DNA of 26,466 nt from a virus (Duplodnaviria > Caudoviricetes). The notes beneath the pieces were generated by a model. The model had not been told where the DNA came from. It saw only the letters and a program-made list of their open reading frames with translations, and searched no databases. Below are positions 1-12,880 of the stretch, piece by piece; position 1 is the stretch's first letter; each line of letters opens with the position of its first letter. The position numbers and the translations under genes are program-made. Where the stretch lies: IMG/VR virus record IMGVR_UViG_3300032225_001105, positions 1 to 26,466 of that record; one strand, given 5' to 3'.

Positions 1-114
1 GCGATCGACATTCCCGATGTGATGGAGTTTGCGGCGAAACACGGCAGGTGCGTCGTGTCGGTGACTAGCGAGGGATTTCACGACATCGAGATTTACGACG
101 ACTACCGAGAGTAG
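1..114 (+). CDS. 3' end of small phage hypothetical protein (partial; probable cassette gene)
   Basis: Open frame 1 reads AIDIPDVMEFAAKHGRCVVSVTSEGFHDIEIYDDYRE*; TAG at 112-114 sits immediately before the first attC-like site. Confidence 0.7.
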   Translation, partial: AIDIPDVMEFAAKHGRCVVSVTSEGFHDIEIYDDYRE

Positions 115-116
115 AA

Positions 117-172
117 GGCGAACACGCAGGATAAGCGGCGGCTTCGCCGTCCGCTTCATCCGCTGGTTATCC
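117..172 (-). repeat. attC-like site 1 (56 bp)
   Basis: + strand GGCGAAC-ACGCAG-GATAAGC-GGCGGCTTCGCCGTCC-GCTTCATC-CGCTG-GTTATCC; 7-bp and 8-bp L boxes pair with an extra C, plus an extra T further in. Confidence 0.85.
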
Positions 173-173
173 A

Positions 174-557
174 ATGAGCACACGATCACAGTTTGCGTTT
201 GCGGCTCTCGATGCTGGCATCCGCGTCGAGGAGAACCAAGCCGAATGGCTCGGAACGCCGGAGGCTTGCTGGGACGCATACGTTGCGAGCCGGGCGACGG
301 CCACTCGCGACCGGCTCGGGTGCGACGTGTATTGGATCGAGGCGACTTGTGGGAAGCAGACCTACTGGAAGATCGGCATTTCGCACGACGCCGAGAAGCG
401 GATGGAGGACTTCGCAAAGACGTTCCCGATTGCATCGTGGCGGATTCTGCGGACGTGCCGAATGGCGAGGCGGAAGGTAGCCGAGATATGCGAGGCCGAC
501 ATGCTCGTGTCGTGTCGCCACCTGCACATAGACGGGGAATGGATTCGGACTGGATAA
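174..557 (+). CDS. GIY-YIG superfamily protein (T5orf172/MUG113-like), cassette gene
   Basis: VYWI...WKIGIS....KR...GEW motif pattern; ATG just after attC1; stop TAA inside the R box of attC2. Confidence 0.7.
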   Translation: MSTRSQFAFAALDAGIRVEENQAEWLGTPEACWDAYVASRATATRDRLGCDVYWIEATCGKQTYWKIGISHDAEKRMEDFAKTFPIASWRILRTCRMARRKVAEICEADMLVSCRHLHIDGEWIRTG

Positions 558-599
558 CGATGCGATCTGCGGCTTGTCCGCAGCATCGCTTGGTTATGC
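552..599 (-). repeat. attC-like site 2 (48 bp)
   Basis: GGATAAC-GATGC-GATCTGC-GGCTTGTCC-GCAGCATC-GCTTG-GTTATGC; core nearly identical to site 4. Confidence 0.85.
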
Positions 600-625
600 C
601 GGGTTGATTCACACAGGAGAAGACG

Positions 626-850
626 ATGAAACCGGGTGACATTTTTGTTGGCAAGACATACCGCAACAAGGGCGCGGGCAGAACGACTCGCCGTGTGGTT
701 GACATGGGGACGCACTTGCCGCCGCCGCACTGGCTTTCAAACAACCCTCGCCCTGACGAGAGCGTGGTGGAGTTTGTACAGGGCAGGGAGACACACAGGC
801 TGTACCTGTCGTCATTCGCGGCGTGGGCTAATAGAGAAGTTGTGGCATAA
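626..850 (+). CDS. Small hypothetical protein (74 aa), cassette gene
   Basis: AGGAG RBS at 616-620; fills the space between attC2 and attC3; TAA lies in the attC3 R box. Confidence 0.75.
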   Translation: MKPGDIFVGKTYRNKGAGRTTRRVVDMGTHLPPPHWLSNNPRPDESVVEFVQGRETHRLYLSSFAAWANREVVA

Positions 851-934
851 CGCCAGAGATCACAAGCCGCGAACTAGGAGGGCGGCCCACATGAACGATA
901 CGAATGAGCGGTCTTGTGCATCGCGTGGTTCTCG
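845..934 (-). repeat. attC-like site 3 (90 bp), loop contains RBS and ATG
   Basis: GCATAAC-GCCAGA-GATCACA-AGCCGC...GCGGTCT-TGTGCATC-GCGTG-GTTCTCG; same extra C and T; AGGAGG at 876-881 and ATG at 891 inside the loop. Confidence 0.85.
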
Positions 935-1223
935 GCCAGTGGCGTGGGTGGTCGCTCTCGGCGGCGACGGGCTCATCATCGACGGCATCTTCCTGCGGAG
1001 GACGCAGGCGGAGGAAGCGTGTGCTTGGCGGAACGAGCACACCACTTACGGCGCAAGGATCATTCCACTCCACGAGAAGCCGCAGCCAACGCTCACCGAC
1101 GAGGAGCGGGAGGCGTTGTGGTGTGCCGTGTGCGACTACAACAGCATGACGAGAACGCTGGACATGCCGAGATGCGGGAAGATCGGCCCAGCCCTTGCGA
1201 GTCTTTTTGAGCGATTGAAGTGA
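891..1223 (+). CDS. Hypothetical protein (110 aa), cassette gene starting inside attC3
   Basis: In-frame ATG of track ORF 636..1223 with a strong RBS; MNDTNERSCASRGS...PQPTLTDEEREAL; TGA lies in the attC4 R box. Confidence 0.75.
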   Translation: MNDTNERSCASRGSRPVAWVVALGGDGLIIDGIFLRRTQAEEACAWRNEHTTYGARIIPLHEKPQPTLTDEEREALWCAVCDYNSMTRTLDMPRCGKIGPALASLFERLK

Positions 1224-1269
1224 GAACGCCAGCGATCTGCGGCTCGTCCGCAGCATCGCGTGGTTCTGC
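1221..1269 (-). repeat. attC-like site 4 (49 bp)
   Basis: TGAGAAC-GCCAGC-GATCTGC-GGCTCGTCC-GCAGCATC-GCGTG-GTTCTGC. Confidence 0.85.
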
Positions 1270-1327
1270 GGGTCGGTGGTTATAAATCTGTTGGGGTACG
1301 GCGTATTAGATGTAGGAGGACACAGCC

Positions 1328-1558
1328 ATGACCGGAAAGACAGTCACAATCGACCACGCCGAACTACTGCGTATCCGAAGCGCGCTTCACGGCGTGACGC
1401 TTCACTTTCGCGACCTGATGGAAAACGGCTTTCCGAAGCCGCCACGCAAGAACTGCAACGCCGACGCAGGGTCGGCGCATCAGGAATGGCTTGACGAGAG
1501 ATGGCAAACGCTGAACGTGGCAGGCGAAGTTCTCAAGGATACGGAGCACCTATGTTGA
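1328..1558 (+). CDS. Hypothetical protein (76 aa), cassette gene
   Basis: AGGAGGA RBS at 1314-1320 ahead of the ATG. Confidence 0.7.
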   Translation: MTGKTVTIDHAELLRIRSALHGVTLHFRDLMENGFPKPPRKNCNADAGSAHQEWLDERWQTLNVAGEVLKDTEHLC

Positions 1559-1659
1559 TTGCGTGCTGTGGCTGCGCGACTGAAGCAGGTATTTTGGCCG
1601 TCGTAGTGGGCGCGATATTCCTTTTTGCTTTCATTGTTCTTGAGTGCATAAGGATTTGA
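1552..1659 (+). CDS. Putative 35-aa single-pass membrane peptide (not in ORF track)
   Basis: MLIACCGCATEAGILAVVVGAIFLFAFIVLECIRI*; GGAG at 1543-1546; overlaps the previous stop and ends 7 nt before attC5. Confidence 0.5.
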   Translation: MLIACCGCATEAGILAVVVGAIFLFAFIVLECIRI

Positions 1660-1666
1660 GTTTCAA

Positions 1667-1755
1667 GCAGAACACGGAAGATCAACGGCGGCCACCGGAG
1701 GACTCACCATGACACATGACGCAGAAGGGCCGTCCGTTGCATCGGCTGGTTCTGT
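1667..1755 (-). repeat. attC-like site 5 (89 bp), loop contains RBS and ATG
   Basis: GCAGAAC-ACGGAA-GATCAAC-GGCGGCC...GGCCGTCC-GTTGCATC-GGCTG-GTTCTGT; GGAGG at 1697-1701 and ATG at 1709 inside the loop. Confidence 0.85.
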
Positions 1756-2326
1756 TTTGGGTTGCGCAGGAGCAAATGCCAAGGAGCGGCAAATGACCGT
1801 GAACAAGAATCCGATTGGGCGTTACGTCTATGCCTGGTTCAACGACGACAGCCCTTTTCCGTTCTATGTTGGAAAAGGCGTTGCCGACAGGGCCTGGAAG
1901 AGGCACATGCTGAAAGGGCAATCTGCCTTTTGCAACAAGATTCGCTCGGCGTCTTCTAGATTTTGGGTTCACATCGTAAAGGACGGACTTACGAACGAAG
2001 GGGCGATGCTGCTTGAGGCCGCCCTTATCGGCATGTTCTCGGCGATGGGGGGATGCGTTGCCAATCAGGTATCGCCCTTGCGTCGCCAAGAGGTTCCGCC
2101 GCTGTGGCTGCGTGACGTATTGGCTAAGCACGAGCCCGTGAGCCGATTGGTTCAGGACGAAGAATCAGAGGACGGACTTTTGTCCGAGATCATTGACGTG
2201 CTGGACGAAACGGAAGGGCGCGGGGCCTTGTGCCTCACGCCAGGCAGGATCGCAGAAAAACTTGGAGGCCGATACGGGCGCGAACGGATCGTAAACTGCA
2301 TGAAACGCCACGGCCTGAATCCGTAA
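1709..2326 (+). CDS. GIY-YIG nuclease-like protein (LEM-3/Seg-like motif) with possible C-terminal HTH; alternative start 1793
   Basis: YVYAW...PFYVGKG...RA..H...E..LI pattern; second RBS AAGGAG at 1781-1786 before ATG 1793. Confidence 0.75.
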   Translation: MTHDAEGPSVASAGSVLGCAGANAKERQMTVNKNPIGRYVYAWFNDDSPFPFYVGKGVADRAWKRHMLKGQSAFCNKIRSASSRFWVHIVKDGLTNEGAMLLEAALIGMFSAMGGCVANQVSPLRRQEVPPLWLRDVLAKHEPVSRLVQDEESEDGLLSEIIDVLDETEGRGALCLTPGRIAEKLGGRYGRERIVNCMKRHGLNP

Positions 2327-2360
2327 CAGAACCAGTGTTTATGCGGACCCGCATAAACAT
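2326..2360 (-). other. attI-like terminal recombination site or truncated attC
   Basis: ACAGAAC-CAGTG-TTTATGC gives R box, 5-nt spacer and L-like box; perfect 11-bp inverted repeat TGTTTATGCGG/CCGCATAAACA (2336-2359); no extra base and no closing GTT. Confidence 0.55.
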
Positions 2361-2461
2361 CCCCCATGCTGCATATCACGCCATAAAATCGCGCCGCACG
2401 GCCGCGAGGCGCGAAGCCGGGGCGTTATCGTGGTCCGCATAGTACGCCTGGATGATCCCCA

Positions 2462-2608
2462 GTGAGTGCCCACCTGATCGCCCTGACCGGCTGCATCTAC
2501 GCCTACGTCTGCCTTGAGCAGTTCTGGCGTGGCAACGTGCCGATGGCCGTAGCCTACGCCGGGTACGCATTTGCAAATATCGGCCTTTGGTTGCTGGCTT
2601 CTCGGTGA
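2462..2608 (+). CDS. Small hydrophobic phage protein (48 aa; not in ORF track)
   Basis: GTG start; MSAHLIALTGCIYAYVCLEQFWRGNVPMAVAYAGYAFANIGLWLLASR*; two hydrophobic segments; resembles small proteins I recall from aquatic phages. Confidence 0.65.
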   Translation: MSAHLIALTGCIYAYVCLEQFWRGNVPMAVAYAGYAFANIGLWLLASR

Positions 2609-2656
2609 TTCGGCGGCTGTCCATGCCCTCGTAAAATGGGGGTAAGGAGACACGCC

Positions 2657-2764
2657 ATGCCCGCCTACCTCGATGACGAGTTCTTTGAGGAAGTCGATGC
2701 CGAGCTAAGTTCGAGCGAAGGCATCGTGTGCATCGAGTTCCTTGACGGCCCGGCGGGCTACTGA
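2657..2764 (+). CDS. Small acidic protein (35 aa; not in ORF track)
   Basis: TAAGGAG RBS at 2643-2649; MPAYLDDEFFEEVDAELSSSEGIVCIEFLDGPAGY*. Confidence 0.55.
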   Translation: MPAYLDDEFFEEVDAELSSSEGIVCIEFLDGPAGY

Positions 2765-2779
2765 ACACTGGTACACTAG
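2761..2779 (+). promoter_or_regulatory. Putative promoter/operator ahead of head genes
   Basis: CTGAACACTGGTACACTAG contains extended -10-like TGG-TACACT; 15/19 match to 23352-23370; ACTGGTACACT matches 14097-14107 at 10/11. Confidence 0.45.
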
Positions 2780-2818
2780 TGGTAGGGATGCGGAAGCATC
2801 CCGCACCAGGAGCCTCCA

Positions 2819-3037
2819 GTGGCCGACAACTCCGACGTTCTTGACGCAGTGGCGGCGAATCTCGCCCAGCCGAAGCGTGCCCGCACGGACGCCGGCGAAG
2901 TGGAGCAGCACGACCTCGACAAGCAAATTGCGGCCGCCAAGTTCGTGATCGGCAATCGTTCGGCCAGCGGTGGCGCCTTCTCGCCGTTTGCCGCGGTGCG
3001 GCGGGCAAACATCGAACTTCCCGGGGGCTGCGGCTGA
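2819..3037 (+). CDS. Head completion protein, positional gpW analogue
   Basis: 72 aa, AGGAG RBS, stop overlaps the portal start; lambda-like position before the portal. Confidence 0.6.
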   Translation: MADNSDVLDAVAANLAQPKRARTDAGEVEQHDLDKQIAAAKFVIGNRSASGGAFSPFAAVRRANIELPGGCG

Positions 3038-4485
3038 TGGGGCTGCTCTCGTGGTTCAAGAAGCCGGCCGATCTCCGCCAGACGGTGGAATCGCAGCGTA
3101 TTGCCATCACCGAGATGATCCGTGCCCGGTACGACGCGGCACAGACCACGTCGCTGAACACCCGCCACTGGTCGATGGCAGACTTCCTTTCTGCCGACGC
3201 CGCCCTATCGCCGGAGGTTCGCCGGAAGATCCGCAGTCGCGTGCGGTACGAGGTTGGGAACAACTCGTATGCCGCCGGCATGGCAAGCACTTGGGCGCAC
3301 GACCTGATCGGCACAGGGCCGCGGCTGCAGCTCGACCTCGGCCCCGACGTGGACGCCGACCTCTGCCGCAAGGTGGAGCTTGCCGTCTACGACTGGTCTG
3401 TGGAGGTTGACCTAGCGAAGAAGCTGCGCATCGCCAAGATCGCCAAGATCAGTGACGGAGAGGTGTTCGGCATCAAGACGAACAACACACGGCTTGACGG
3501 CGTTCAGCTCGACGTGCGGCTGGTTGAGGCCGATCAATGTGCGTCCCAAAACGGATTTCCGACCGAGCAAGACATTGACGGTGTGGTTTACGACGAGAAC
3601 GGCGTTCCGTCACGCTACTGGATCCTCAAGCGTCACCCAGGCTCAAACTACGCCGGCTGGAACCAAGAAGGCCGCTGGGTGGACGCGAAGGACGTGTACC
3701 ACTGGTTTCACGCCACCCGCCCTGGTCAGCATCGCGGCGTGCCGGAACTTACGCCGGCGATCGAACTGTTTGCCCTCATGCGTCGGTTCACGCTGGCGAC
3801 CGTAACGGCCGCCGAGGTGGCGGCAGACTTCGCGGCGATCCTCAAGAGCACCATGTCGCCAGACCAAGTGGGGGCGGCCCATATCGCCGACTGGGAAACG
3901 ATGCCGGTCGTCCGCGGCATGATGACGGCGATCCCGGACGGCTACGACATCACGCAGATGCGGTCGGAGCATCCCGTTTCCACGCATGACCAGTTTGTGC
4001 GTCGGCTGCTGAATGAGTGCGCCCGTGCCGTCGATATGCCCTACATCGTGGCTGCGATGGACAGCAGCATGGCGAACTACAGTTCGATGCGCGGCGACTA
4101 CTTGGTGTATCGCAAGCGAATCAGCGTTGAGCGGAACGACGTGGAGCGGGTGTTTCTCGACCCGCTTCTCAAGGCATGGCTTGACGAAGCCGCCCTCGTC
4201 GCCGGGCTGATCCCTGACGGCCTGCCGCCGGTTGCTGAGTGGAACTGGTCGTGGTCGTGGGACGGTTTCGACCACGTAGATCCGCTCAAGGAGGCCGAGG
4301 CCGAGGCGGCCCAGATCGGCAACAACACCGCGACGCTGGCGGAGATTTGCCAGCGGCGAAACAAGGACTGGCGTCAAGTGTTGCGGCAGCGTTCTGTCGA
4401 AAAGTCGCTCGAGCGTGAACTTGGGATTGAGCCGGTCGTGAAGACGCCCAGCCCGGCCCCGGCACAGGAGAACGTACCCGCATGA
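3037..4485 (+). CDS. Phage portal protein, lambda family
   Basis: 482 aa; motifs R.R.R...NN.YA, DGEVF, RPGQ.RGVP, NYSS.R, VDPLKE are typical of lambda gpB-type portals. Confidence 0.92.
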   Translation: MGLLSWFKKPADLRQTVESQRIAITEMIRARYDAAQTTSLNTRHWSMADFLSADAALSPEVRRKIRSRVRYEVGNNSYAAGMASTWAHDLIGTGPRLQLDLGPDVDADLCRKVELAVYDWSVEVDLAKKLRIAKIAKISDGEVFGIKTNNTRLDGVQLDVRLVEADQCASQNGFPTEQDIDGVVYDENGVPSRYWILKRHPGSNYAGWNQEGRWVDAKDVYHWFHATRPGQHRGVPELTPAIELFALMRRFTLATVTAAEVAADFAAILKSTMSPDQVGAAHIADWETMPVVRGMMTAIPDGYDITQMRSEHPVSTHDQFVRRLLNECARAVDMPYIVAAMDSSMANYSSMRGDYLVYRKRISVERNDVERVFLDPLLKAWLDEAALVAGLIPDGLPPVAEWNWSWSWDGFDHVDPLKEAEAEAAQIGNNTATLAEICQRRNKDWRQVLRQRSVEKSLERELGIEPVVKTPSPAPAQENVPA

Positions 4486-6365
4486 GCCGCCTTGAACTCA
4501 ACGCCGACTTCAACCTTCTCGCCGCAGACGGCGAGGGCAGCGTCCCCACGTTTGAGATGACCGCCTACACCGGTGCCGCTATCCGGCAGGGGTGGAGTCG
4601 GACGCCGATCGTCGTTGACCTGGAGGGAATGTCGGCTGGCCAGACGACTCCGATCCTCTACGGCCACGGCAAGGAAATGCCGCTCCTTGACTCCGTGATC
4701 GGCAAGGGTTCGCCAACGAACGACGGCAAGCAGTTGATGCTGTCCGGCGACCTGATCGCCGGCGAGCCTGCGAGCGACAAGCTCATCCGGCTGGCCAAGG
4801 CCGGCGTGCCGCTTCAGGCGTCGATCGGGGCGGATGCCCTGTCGTTTGAGAACGTGCCCGCCGGCACGACCGTAACCGTCAACGGCCGCGACTTCGTCGG
4901 GCCGATCAGTGTTGCTCGCCGCACGATGCTTCGTGAAGTGAGCGTGGTTCTGTTTGGTGCGGACGCCAATACGTCCGCGGCTATCGCCGCCGAGGCGAAC
5001 GAGGTTTCACCCATGAGCGATCAGCTCAACGAGACGCCTGTCGATGCCGTCAAGGCTTCGGCGGAAGACACGGCGAGCGTCGCCGTGGAGAAGACCCCGG
5101 CCATCCAGGCCAGCCAGCCGAAGCCGCTGACGGCCGAGGAAATCGCCAGCGTCGTCCGCGAGACGATCAAGGCGGAGCGGCTGCACGAAGTTCGTGCCAG
5201 CCGGCCCGCTGCCCCGGTCCCGACGGAGGCCGACATCCAGGCCCACCGCTCAACCGAGGCGAAGGTGGCGGAGGCCACCCTGTGCATCGTCGCCGGCCTG
5301 CAAAACCTGGAGAAGCACTTCGACGAGCGGACGCTGGAGGCCGCCGACAAGCGGCGTTCCGAGGCTGGCCTGCAGTCGCTTCTCCTTGACGCTGCCCGTG
5401 CGAACGGGTGGAAGGGACACGACCGCAAGGTGACGCATGGCAACGCGAAGGAAATCTTCGCCCATGCGTTCGGGCAGATCCAGGCCACGGGTTTCGCGAC
5501 CCACAGCATCAGCAACGTGCTGGCCGCGACCTACGGCAAGTTCCTTCTGCAAGGCTTCAACGCCGTCGAGAACGTCGCCGACATGATCTCGAACGTCCGC
5601 CCTGTGGCTGACTTCAAGACCGTGACCGGCGTCCGCCTCAACGGTGGTTTTGTGTTTGAGGAGGTTGGTCCCAGCGGCGAGATCAAGTCGGCCGACGCGA
5701 CCGACGAGACTCGGACCCTCAAGGCCAAGCTCTACGGTCGTCTCTCGTCCGTGAGCATGGTGGACATCGTGAACGACGACCTTGGTGCTCTGACCCAGGT
5801 GCCGGTGCGTCTTGGTCGTGGTGCGGCGATCAAGAAGAACATCGACTTCTGGACGGAGTTCCAGGCGTCGAACAGTTCGTACTACCAGGCGGCAACGCCG
5901 GCTGGTGGCAACGCCCTGGCGTTCGCTTCTCTCTCCACGGCGGCGATCGCATACCGGAAGCTCCTGGACACGGACGGCAACCTCCTCGGCATCACGCCCA
6001 GGATCCTGCTCGTCCCGCCCGACCTGGAGCTGACGGCTGCCCAGCTGATGACGCAATCACTGCTCATGTCGTCAAGCCTCGGCTCGACCTCGAGCAAGGT
6101 TGTGGAGCCGACCGCGAACGTGCTCGCCGGCCGGTATCGGGTGGTTTCTTCGGCGTATCTCACCTCCACCTCGACGTGGTGGCTGATGGCCGATCCGAAC
6201 GACCTCCCGGCGATGGAGGTGGCCTACCTCAACGGTATGACCACCCCGGTTGTTCAGCAGGCCGATGCCGACTTCAACCAGCTCGGCATCCAGTTCCGCG
6301 GCTACTACGCCTACGGCGTGGCCAAGGCCGAGGCCCGCTCGACCTACCGCATGGCGACCTCGTGA
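4482..6365 (+). CDS. Fused prohead protease / scaffold / major capsid protein (Mu gpT-like capsid domain)
   Basis: N-terminal AYTG...VVDL.G...H...QASIG...L.EVS.V..GAD..T protease-like domain; C-terminal DFK, GEIK, YGR, IVNDDLGAL, P..LLVP..LE, EVAYLNG...P capsid motifs. Confidence 0.88.
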   Translation: MSRLELNADFNLLAADGEGSVPTFEMTAYTGAAIRQGWSRTPIVVDLEGMSAGQTTPILYGHGKEMPLLDSVIGKGSPTNDGKQLMLSGDLIAGEPASDKLIRLAKAGVPLQASIGADALSFENVPAGTTVTVNGRDFVGPISVARRTMLREVSVVLFGADANTSAAIAAEANEVSPMSDQLNETPVDAVKASAEDTASVAVEKTPAIQASQPKPLTAEEIASVVRETIKAERLHEVRASRPAAPVPTEADIQAHRSTEAKVAEATLCIVAGLQNLEKHFDERTLEAADKRRSEAGLQSLLLDAARANGWKGHDRKVTHGNAKEIFAHAFGQIQATGFATHSISNVLAATYGKFLLQGFNAVENVADMISNVRPVADFKTVTGVRLNGGFVFEEVGPSGEIKSADATDETRTLKAKLYGRLSSVSMVDIVNDDLGALTQVPVRLGRGAAIKKNIDFWTEFQASNSSYYQAATPAGGNALAFASLSTAAIAYRKLLDTDGNLLGITPRILLVPPDLELTAAQLMTQSLLMSSSLGSTSSKVVEPTANVLAGRYRVVSSAYLTSTSTWWLMADPNDLPAMEVAYLNGMTTPVVQQADADFNQLGIQFRGYYAYGVAKAEARSTYRMATS

Positions 6366-10212: not shown

Positions 10213-11280
10213 GTGAACACCATGATTGAACACCTCCACCGAATCGCCGCCCACGCCTACTACGTTGGCGAGGAAGCCGCTGGCCGCCGGGCGTGCGAAC
10301 GCCTGCTGCGGCTTCCACTCTCTCCGGAGAAGGAAGAGAAAGTCCGCAGCAATCGGACCTGGTACACGCAGACGCTACGGGATCTCGGCGTCAACGCCGC
10401 GTTCAAGGCGATTGAAGTCAATCCCGCTGCCCCCGGCTGGTCGCTGTTCAACCCGTCGGTCGTGATGCACCACGGGAGGATGCTGGTCAACGTCCGGTCC
10501 AGCAACTACCGGATCGTGGACGGCCAGTACGTCATGCCGCCGGAAGACAGCCAGACGATCAAGACAAAGAACTGCCTATGGATTCCCGGCCGCGACCAGG
10601 CCACCTACTGGTCGGCCGACTACGAGACGACCGGCTACCCCGTTGAGGGGCTGGAAGACGTGCGGCTCAACTCCGTGGACGGCAGGCTGATCGTATCGGC
10701 TACCGTCCGCAACTGGGCCGGCCTGGACGGCACCTGCCGGATCGGCGTCGGCCGCCTGGACTTGGTCGATCGTATCGACGGGCTGCGTGTTCGCGCCACG
10801 ATCGACGAACGTCACGAAAAAAACTGGATGCCGATCACCGGCAAGAAAGAGTTCCTATACCACTGCAGCCACGAAGGCCGGACGTGCCTCGTGAGTGAAG
10901 AGGATAACGACTGGACCGTGACGGCCCACGCCGAGGCTCCGCCGGTCGCCTGCGGCTTCCGCGGCGGCTCGCAGCTTGTTGAGCACCCGTGGGCACCGGG
11001 CTTGTGGTGGGCGATCGTCCACGAAGTCGCCGTCTCCGGTGGCCGCCGGGTCTACGAGCACCGGTTCGTGACTTTCGACGAGGCGGCGGACTGGAAGATC
11101 GTCAGGGTGTCGCCTCCGTTCGCATTTCACGAATCGCGAACGATTGAGTTCTGTGCCGGCTTGTGCGTGAACGACAGCGACTCGCTGATGGCATCGTTCG
11201 GCGTCAACGACGCAGAGGCGTGGCTGGCCCGCATTCCGATTGCCGACGTGGTCAACATCATGGTGGACGCATGGGAGTGA
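10213..11280 (+). CDS. N-terminal TPR-like helix plus beta-propeller glycoside hydrolase/phosphorylase-like domain (GH130/GH43-like fold)
   Basis: FNPSV, GLEDVRL, EKNWMP, RGGSQ, YEHRF, IEFCAGL, SFGVND motifs. Confidence 0.7.
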   Translation: MNTMIEHLHRIAAHAYYVGEEAAGRRACERLLRLPLSPEKEEKVRSNRTWYTQTLRDLGVNAAFKAIEVNPAAPGWSLFNPSVVMHHGRMLVNVRSSNYRIVDGQYVMPPEDSQTIKTKNCLWIPGRDQATYWSADYETTGYPVEGLEDVRLNSVDGRLIVSATVRNWAGLDGTCRIGVGRLDLVDRIDGLRVRATIDERHEKNWMPITGKKEFLYHCSHEGRTCLVSEEDNDWTVTAHAEAPPVACGFRGGSQLVEHPWAPGLWWAIVHEVAVSGGRRVYEHRFVTFDEAADWKIVRVSPPFAFHESRTIEFCAGLCVNDSDSLMASFGVNDAEAWLARIPIADVVNIMVDAWE

Positions 11281-11831
11281 CGACCTCCGCAGCATGGACC
11301 GAGACCGTCCGCCGTGCCCTTGAGAGCAACTGGCGGGAGGATGATTGGTTCGGCTGCGACAGCCGCGTGATCTTTCACTACGCCATGAAGGGCGAAATCT
11401 TCAAGCGATACCGCCCCAGGCGCGTGATCGAGATTGGCACCCGCTGCGGCTACTCGCTGCTGACGTTCCACAAGGCGTCTCCCGGGGCGAGTTATCTGTG
11501 CATCGACGGGGCGATGGACGCCGACTCCTACGACTGCCTCGCACACTGGCGACGGCTGGTGGAGCGGCACGAGATCGACGCCGACCTGATCGTGGTGGAT
11601 TCGCACGCCATCAAGAGCCTGCCGCCGGCTGACTTCGCGCACATCGACGGGGACCATTCCTACGAAGGTGCCTTGGCCGATCTCCGGCTTGTCGCAGGCT
11701 CCCGAGTGATTCTTGCCGACGACTGCGACAACCAGGCCGTGAAGGCCGCGGTGGAGCAGTTCGCCCGGGATCAGGCGTGCACGGTGGAGTATTTCGATGA
11801 CGGGTTACGAAAGGGGGCGGTGCTGACGTGA
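11271..11831 (+). CDS. Class I SAM-dependent methyltransferase (Methyltransf_24-like); start 11271 or 11277
   Basis: VIEIGTRCGYS, HIDGDHSYEG...DL, DD motifs. Confidence 0.85.
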   Translation: MGVTTSAAWTETVRRALESNWREDDWFGCDSRVIFHYAMKGEIFKRYRPRRVIEIGTRCGYSLLTFHKASPGASYLCIDGAMDADSYDCLAHWRRLVERHEIDADLIVVDSHAIKSLPPADFAHIDGDHSYEGALADLRLVAGSRVILADDCDNQAVKAAVEQFARDQACTVEYFDDGLRKGAVLT

Positions 11832-12880
11832 AGGTTGCCATCTACGCCCTCGCCAAGAACGAAGCCGCCAACGTCAAGCGGTGGGAGGCGTCGTGCCGCG
11901 AGGCCGACTATCGGGTTGTGACGGACACCGGCAGCACGGACGGCACCCTGGAGTTGCTCGGCAACGCTGGGGTCTCGGTGGCTCACGGGGCTCCGATCCC
12001 GTGGCGGTGGGACGATGCCCACAACCTTTCGCTCATGCACGTCCCTGCCGACGTGGACGTGGCGATCCGGCTCGACCTGGACGAAGCCCTGGACCCTGGA
12101 TGGCGTGAAGCATTGGAGCGTGACTGGAAGCCCGAGACGACGAAGCTCCGCTACTGGTACTGGTGGTCGAACGACGTTCGGTTTCGCTGCGATCGGGTTC
12201 ACTCCCGGCACGGATATCGGTGGTCTGGGGCGACGCACGAGGGGCTTTCGCGGTGGTCCGGCGATGAGGTGCAGGCTTACTCCGACGGGCTGGTGATCCG
12301 CCATCACAGGCAGCCCGGGAAGCGGCACGGCACAGACCTTGAGCTGCTACGGCAGGCGGTGCGGGAGAATCCGACCGATGCCAGGATGTCCTGGTATCTG
12401 GCTCGGGAAATGGACTACGCCGGCGACAAGGATGCCGCCGCGGCGTTTGCGTCTTATCTGCGGATGCCGGGCGGGGCTCCTAATGAGCGGGCTTACGCTC
12501 GCCGGGCGTTGACGCGGCTGGATCCGCAAGGGGCCAACTTGCACATGCTGGCCGCCATGCTTGAGGCACCGCTTGAGCCGGAGCCCTACGTTCACGTCGC
12601 CAACCTCGCTTGGAAGAAGCGGGACACCGCGGCCACGTTGCACTTCGCCCGGCAGGCGTTGAACTGCCCTGGCGAAAGCCAGACGCACACAAGCGACCCG
12701 GAATGCTACGGGGATGCTCCGGCAGACCTTGCCTATTCAGCCGCCTACGAGCTGGGCCTGCTTGACGAGGCGCTCGCCTACGCCCGGATTGCGGCGGGGC
12801 GAAACCCCGGAAACCCGCGCCACGCCGCCAACGTGTCGGCACTTGAGAGAATGATTACGGAGGACGGCCCCAAGCCGTGA
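11828..12880 (+). CDS. Glycosyltransferase family 2 with C-terminal TPR repeats
   Basis: IYALAKNE, DTGSTDGT, LDLDE (DxD), THE, R..WYLARE, followed by helical repeats. Confidence 0.88.
   Translation: MKVAIYALAKNEAANVKRWEASCREADYRVVTDTGSTDGTLELLGNAGVSVAHGAPIPWRWDDAHNLSLMHVPADVDVAIRLDLDEALDPGWREALERDWKPETTKLRYWYWWSNDVRFRCDRVHSRHGYRWSGATHEGLSRWSGDEVQAYSDGLVIRHHRQPGKRHGTDLELLRQAVRENPTDARMSWYLAREMDYAGDKDAAAAFASYLRMPGGAPNERAYARRALTRLDPQGANLHMLAAMLEAPLEPEPYVHVANLAWKKRDTAATLHFARQALNCPGESQTHTSDPECYGDAPADLAYSAAYELGLLDEALAYARIAAGRNPGNPRHAANVSALERMITEDGPKP

Follow-up and report, generated by a model that had tools for sequence, protein, structure and literature searches.

IMG/VR virus record IMGVR_UViG_3300032225_001105 (Duplodnaviria; Caudoviricetes) comprises 26,466 nucleotides (nt), all of which we analysed (hereafter the window), and is about 63% complete. 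Its + strand encodes a lambda-type portal, a protease-capsid fusion and tail genes. Directly upstream of the head operon is a run of small genes that a preliminary description, made from the sequence alone, had portrayed as a phage-borne array of integron-type cassettes with five related hairpins between the genes. We confirmed the hairpins at 117-1755, and the evidence set out below leaves us in little doubt that the integron-type cassette structure is real. The array and its immediate surroundings contain the following features:

1..114, + strand: 3' part of a small gene truncated at the contig edge; possibly a further cassette gene, and the array may continue leftward
117-172, - strand (the top strand of the site being the - strand): attC-type site 1, predicted crossover AA/C at 122/123
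174..557, + strand: cassette 1 gene, 127 aa, T5orf172/MUG113 GIY-YIG-like (atlas score 0.94), stop inside the next core
552-599, - strand: attC-type site 2, short, 5-nt left spacer
626..850, + strand: cassette 2 gene, 74 aa, no assigned function, stop inside the next core
845-934, - strand: attC-type site 3, long, containing a Shine-Dalgarno-like AGGAGG and an ATG at 891
891..1223, + strand: cassette 3 gene, 110 aa, predicted start inside site 3
1221-1269, - strand: attC-type site 4, short
1328..1558, + strand: cassette 4 gene, 76 aa, no assigned function, homologue in sequencing run X3
1667-1755, - strand: attC-type site 5, long, containing GGAGGA and an ATG at 1709
1709..2326, + strand: cassette 5 gene, 205 aa (176 aa from a second plausible start at 1796), possibly GIY-YIG-like with a helix-turn-helix
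2326..2435, - strand: candidate attI-like docking site, with AAC at 2330-2332, spacer CAGTG, degenerate L box TTTATGC at 2338-2344 and box-like motifs to 2430
3037..6365, + strand: phage head operon (lambda-type portal and protease-capsid fusion), in the same direction as the cassette genes

The sites share a layout of AAC, 6 nt (5 nt in the left spacer of site 2), a 7-nt L box (GATnnnn), a loop of 9-50 nt, an 8-nt L box (nnnnCATC) carrying a bulged C, 5 nt and GTT. L-box pairing is 7/7 in each of the five, and the L stem folds on both strands. The AAC/GTT cores, 7-bp and 8-bp L boxes, 5-6 nt spacers and extrahelical base reported earlier were all present, and together they form the R''-L''-loop-L'-R' palindrome of attC with a single extrahelical base in L''. 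That base, read on the predicted bottom strand, is a C in 300 of 306 viral and 183 of 201 host sites (proportions partly fixed by our search patterns), instead of the G given as conserved in PMC2727003; C is common to the phage sites and to host arrays linked to intI. The remaining 24.7 kb of the record held no further site under the same site criterion, and Rfam gave no match in 1-3100. A CALIN, or integrase-less attC cluster, is defined as at least two attC sites without a nearby intI (PMC4889954); with five attC sites and no intI, the array is by definition a CALIN, not a complete integron.

A site family in phages and Planctomycetota

Three pattern scans of viral contigs returned 99, 116 and 76 stretches, and a fourth scan used the terminal motif described below. 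The site was present in 327 of the 339 viral loci from the four scans, which collapse to 193 distinct arrays, 120 of them with at least two sites and some with as many as 15. A comparison with shuffled sequence gave 352 sites in 899 kb versus 4 in 589 kb, a difference inflated because the loci had been chosen by the site pattern. The inner four L-box pairs, which lie outside what the search pattern fixed, were fully complementary in 310 of 388 viral sites, compared with 24% when partners were shuffled.

A genome pattern scan covering 12 of 64 parts yielded 134 loci, 120 of them titled Planctomycetota, and all five site-bearing Planctomycetota genomes examined (5/5) encoded an IntI over the TIGR02249 cut-off. 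Judged by sequence, the phage sites belong with those of Planctomycetota chromosomal integrons, where sites of this kind make up the arrays next to intI. Two of these genomes, G004 and G002, had six and three IntI matches over the cut-off, indicating several integrons per genome.

The position of the arrays in the phages is consistent: where the surroundings could be seen, terminase lay to the left on the same strand in 15 of 16 arrays and portal to the right in 23 of 23. The closest relatives of the window, L001 and L003, are 94% identical to it in the head operon and carry five other cassettes between the terminase and head genes. This presence of different genes at the same place in related contigs, with breakpoints at AAC, was what the preliminary description had proposed looking for, and it supports a shuffleable accessory-gene platform in the phage. 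Between array sites in L001 (8150-8730) and in L005 (2030-3010) we also observed a multi-gene unit that includes a small ribbon-helix-helix-like gene and has a promoter-like sequence of its own.

Misassembly, either by joining host integron and phage DNA into a chimera or by putting repeats in the wrong order, might produce such an array, and sites 4 and 5 do coincide with breaks of the source-run contigs, the order there being bridged by no single piece. We consider this extremely improbable. Cassette 5, the terminal site and the portal share one contiguous source-run piece covering 1715-4000, which speaks against the platform being a contig artefact, and a second contiguous piece covers 1-1245 at similar depth (13-15 for both). 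Independent contigs (L001, L003, L005 and L007) have arrays at the same place, and the distinct viral arrays number 193. The source-run contig further contains 297 nt to the left of position 1; because the far end of this extension matches a short attC, the array probably holds at least one further cassette there.

Elsewhere in the window, our by-eye reading of translations at 10213-12880 suggested glycosyltransferase-like and methyltransferase-like genes within the structural operon, two of which were scanned against Pfam and had no match. An annotated phage collection gave no DNA match to 100-2400. Promoter and terminator scans returned chance-level results, with no sigma-70-like site in 1-3100. 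Among the sequencing runs listed as containing the sequence, none was of RNA.

Cassette boundaries, polarity and cargo

The preliminary description had noted that the outer R-box bases do not match within a site and do match across each gene, the offset left by integrated circular cassettes. Our counts agree: all four R-box bases paired from one side of the gene to the other in 227 of 279 units from viruses and in 121 of 156 from hosts, as against 81 of 473 within viral sites, where random pairing would give 15%. Of the five matches listed for the window, all read as written, with two amendments. Four junctions pair 4/4 beyond the triplet and the third (GTTCTCG/TGAGAAC) only 3/4 plus G-T; and the fifth partner, AACAGAAC, with core AAC at 2330-2332, is part of the attI-like site, not of a hairpin. 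The sites are thus chimeric in the manner of attC, R' matching R'' of the same cassette with a G/TT (AA/C) crossover. The proposed G/TT crossover holds in that the junctions are integron-type; on the + strand, however, it falls at AA/C at the left end of each hairpin, and because of this the genes are inverted relative to attC polarity.

Two comparisons delimit the cassettes. Where two units agree in the left gene but differ in the gene that follows, the first mismatch lay no more than 3 bases after AAC in 105 of 116 pairs. Viral pairs with the right-hand gene in common matched at 80% or more over the site body in 101 of 175 cases, and those with the left-hand gene in common in 12 of 130 (background 7.7%); for host pairs the figures were 70 of 77 and 1 of 51. 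The pairs in both the linkage and the breakpoint counts are not independent. An earlier linkage test on 163 units had been too small and gave a mixed outcome. As judged from the larger samples, each hairpin travels with the gene to its right, and the breakpoints and this linkage together place the predicted cassettes at 123-557, 558-850, 851-1226, 1227-1672 and 1673-2331.

The host arrays identify the strands. In all 12 host loci with an IntI match above 180 bits and at least one site (12/12), intI is located at the GTT end of the strand on which the 7-nt box precedes the 8-nt box, pointing away from the array; in a further locus, L165, a weaker partial match of 161 bits lies on the other strand. 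Under the anatomy of PMC2727003, this placement makes the 7-8 strand the bottom strand, cut between C and A, and the + strand of the phage record would accordingly correspond to the attC bottom strand. With strict gene calls, viral units were forward in 176 cases, reverse in 8, both in 73 and neither in 37, and host units forward in 2, reverse in 91, both in 8 and neither in 55. On these calls, phage cassette genes are inverted relative to bacterial cassettes and do not run 5' to 3' toward their own attC as integron genes do. Because the 8 reverse viral units resemble spurious open reading frames (ORFs), no captured host cassette was identified. Ordinary polarity, with the crossover at the right-hand GTT, had been suggested by the stops that overlap the AAC cores; it was rejected on the intI position, the linkage and the breakpoints. 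As a separate observation, the provirus record L055 contains eight host-type sites with ordinary gene polarity at 756-6083, probably flanking host integron DNA or a captured piece.

The long sites also carry translation signals. A Shine-Dalgarno-like motif and a start codon opening at least 50 codons were present in 225 of 333 long viral sites (218 in one frame), compared with 7 of 316 host sites, and we infer that the starts at 891 and 1709, within sites 3 and 5, are used. Such signals in a fixed frame, in genes forming one co-directional run, would suit hairpins that act as RNA-level elements (translation leaders or processing sites), with gene exchange incidental. We find this very improbable, as it accounts neither for the R-box pairing across genes, nor for the occurrence of these hairpins behind genes of opposite orientation beside host intI, nor for the attI-like end. 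The cassette explanation itself leaves room for a secondary role in translation.

At its right-hand end the array terminates in a predicted attI site at 2330, recognized by sequence and position: an R box and a degenerate L box at the array end, a layout that agrees with the degenerate L box of attI (PMC2727003). Dozens of phages have, after the last gene, bases that pair with the last hairpin, then AAC, five bases and a degenerate box (profile of 59 ends). The scan for this terminal motif alone found 45 loci. Of the 35 with enough DNA on the left, 30 had an attC there at a distance of up to 1 kb (28 with 4/4 pairing); on the right, 0 of 42 had one. In run X3, a cassette 4 homologue directly abuts attI-like sequence after the AAC at 1673. 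Similar terminal sites occur at the ends of host arrays L113 and L142.

Pfam names none of the five cassette genes. The cassette 1 gene has an 88% homologue in a 204-kb phage (L273), before a different attC and among other neighbours, the cassette 3 gene had 103 tblastn matches among the fetched phage loci, and the cassette 5 gene matches phrog_5356 (E 1.6e-6), a PHROGs family of unknown function, its GIY-YIG atlas rows below 0.9 being a lead only. Across phages, 360 viral cassette ORFs form 247 clusters with a median length of 103 aa. A Pfam scan of 145 of the 247 cluster representatives gave no match for 108, DUF551 for 18 and HNH for 2, and a DNA methyltransferase or Mom for 12 of the 145, two of them below the curated cut-off. 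Two smaller features of the coding sequences were also seen. Cassette 4 may contain a second ORF at 1552-1659 (35 aa, hydrophobic), its ATG overlapping the gene 4 stop and following a GGAG motif. A short module coding for LTDEEREA (1085-1115) recurs in many unrelated cassette genes of related loci and is a frequent divergence point of other contigs, possibly a second exchange hotspot.

Alternatively, the array might be a plain CALIN, captured from a host integron and now inert, with homologous recombination between hairpins as the sole means of reshuffling its units. Near-identical hairpin subfamilies among the phages and the existence of hybrid site contexts fit such a history, and integrase loss and rearrangement are given as origins of CALINs (PMC4889954). 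We judge it improbable: breakpoints fall at AAC and are not spread over the repeat, cross-gene pairing is kept, the genes are inverted with respect to host cassettes, and the terminal site is conserved in many phages. Moreover, blastp between the 360 viral and 173 host cassette proteins gave 0 matches, and the cargo is phage-type, with DUF551 and DNA-modification genes.

Source of the recombinase

No intI accompanies the array as in a complete integron; head genes follow the terminal site. The window contains no tyrosine recombinase, a statement limited by its completeness of about 63%. IntI exceeded the TIGR02249 cut-off in 0 of 50 viral records, and tblastn with IntI gave no match in 297 viral loci.

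A 290-aa phage tyrosine recombinase (PF00589) was present in 34 of 49 array-bearing records and in 22 of the 27 that are near-complete, to which a family profile added two (24/27). These recombinases belong to one family (27-85% identity among 11 distinct sequences, from the 12 best loci examined), and in six loci the gene is within about 1 kb of, or inside, the array; in L025 (2816-3715 of the oriented locus) it sits between two attC sites. If this were the enzyme, the same platform would be a self-contained integron with a non-IntI integrase, which we regard as unlikely. The recombinase lacks the IntI-specific insertion, the sites are host-type attC, and the gene is missing from three near-complete array-bearing records, including a 204-kb record with terminal repeats and a cassette 1 homologue. 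Conversely, attC sites were present in only 5 of 38 recombinase-bearing records (2 of 9 near-complete), a sample of 38 from 80 recombinase loci that was chosen by length and omitted ten known array contigs, five of them query members; adding the five omitted known contigs gives 10 of 43. In a Pirellulaceae chromosome one family member borders a prophage-like region, as expected of a prophage integrase, with no tRNA or attachment repeat in the 80 kb around it; a relaxed tRNA scan beside the phage recombinases gave noise only. Most likely the 290-aa recombinase serves the prophage as its integrase, which makes host IntI, supplied in trans, the likely enzyme for the phage cassettes. That trans-mobilisation of CALINs is possible is stated in PMC11389934.

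We therefore favour, as a probable reading of the sequences, five single-gene cassettes with Planctomycetota-type attC sites, a predicted attI end and inverted genes, which a host chromosomal IntI likely excises and inserts in trans. The + strand would fold as the recombining bottom strand. Recombination between two attC sites would excise a circle that begins with the C of one AAC and ends with the AA of the following core, and recombination between attC and attI would insert a circle at 2331/2332, so that the newest cassette would lie next to the head operon. Because the genes point toward attI, a Pc promoter on the attI side could not read them; they would be read from the phage's own rightward transcript, from terminase to portal, with the long hairpins supplying a ribosome-binding site and start codon.

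Several points weigh against this reading. The sites carry a bulged C in place of the conserved G, the record is incomplete, and the pairs in the linkage and breakpoint counts overlap. The 290-aa recombinase is found in most near-complete array-bearing records and in some loci adjoins the array. Linkage of hairpin to gene is incomplete in the phages, and in run X3 the site before cassette 4 is another one, of the long kind; this hybrid context and the incomplete linkage imply a further route of hairpin exchange. In the five host genomes tested, occurrences of the phage attI pattern did not exceed chance. Finally, the sequencing-run contigs examined yielded no proven excised circle. One contig of run X2 covers 1729-2326 and then rejoins 1668, exactly one cassette 5 length (659 nt); this join could come from an excised circle, from cassette 5 repeated in tandem, or from cassette 5 lying before a further member of its site's subfamily, and because all three arrangements fit we did not count it as a circle.

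Relation to known integrons

The preliminary description had contrasted the array with integrons as normally described, on chromosomes, plasmids and transposons. That contrast needs amending, as integron parts in phages have already been published: PMC9892861, covering 10,705 phage genomes, reports 17 CALINs and 3 complete integrons, and recombination of five of six tested phage attC sites with IntI1. Like the array described here, those phage CALINs consist of small genes bounded by attC without IntI, some with DNA methyltransferases. They differ in being 17 scattered cases, compared with at least 193 arrays in one host group here. The TJE1 cluster has ordinary polarity (gene, then attC top strand), whereas here the genes are inverted and start inside attC; and attI at a CALIN is given there only for a cryptic prophage with intI, in contrast to the conserved attI-like end found here. 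The new features are thus the attI-like end, the reversed polarity and the in-site starts. In the literature searched, which took in few subscription papers, no account came to light of a phage array that is attI-anchored, inverted and lineage-wide.

Planctomycetota carry sedentary chromosomal integrons, for which an attC model is listed in PMC8352920. Their attC sites have the same anatomy as the phage sites, with the L-box motif, the bulged C and a loop of about 50 nt, and they show the same cross-gene pairing and the same linkage. The host arrays differ in having intI beside attI, ordinary polarity and no cassette proteins in common with the phage sample; short loops of 9-18 nt and in-site starts are typical of phage sites, unlike those of the hosts. 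The attC sites of IntI1 and Vibrio integrases have an extrahelical G (PMC2727003, PMC4889954), and the sites here a C, in an orientation that does not serve a Pc promoter. Supply of translation-initiation signals by a recombination site has a parallel in ORF-11/ORF-17 of attI1 (PMC8876359); those signals lie in attI and act on the first cassette by coupling, whereas here they lie in the attC of each cassette, in frame.

A broader proposal, to which we give roughly even weight, is that this group of planctomycete phages runs its own integrase-less integron, with attI in the late operon, a private pool of hundreds of cassettes (each a gene fused to a start-bearing attC) and reversed polarity. 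The phages would use the host IntI while host cassettes, those for defence among them, would land antisense and thus silent in the phage, and phage cassettes would land silent in the host integron; the inversion may be what silences host cassettes in the phage.

If the favoured mechanism is correct, phage mosaicism would gain a site-specific mechanism, and the phage would be exploiting the host integron to have its genes shuffled. Anti-phage defence is reported to be a frequent function of host cassettes (10.1101/2024.07.02.601686, 10.1101/2024.07.02.601719), and the methyltransferase and Mom cargo of the phage arrays are plausible counter-defence genes. The C-bulge sites would offer a test of how IntI selects a strand, and the terminal site would represent a well-sampled natural attI family. 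Cassette creation is called unknown in PMC4889954; with hundreds of unrelated phage genes joined in frame to a small number of near-identical hairpin subfamilies, these arrays would make a tractable case for the origin of cassettes.

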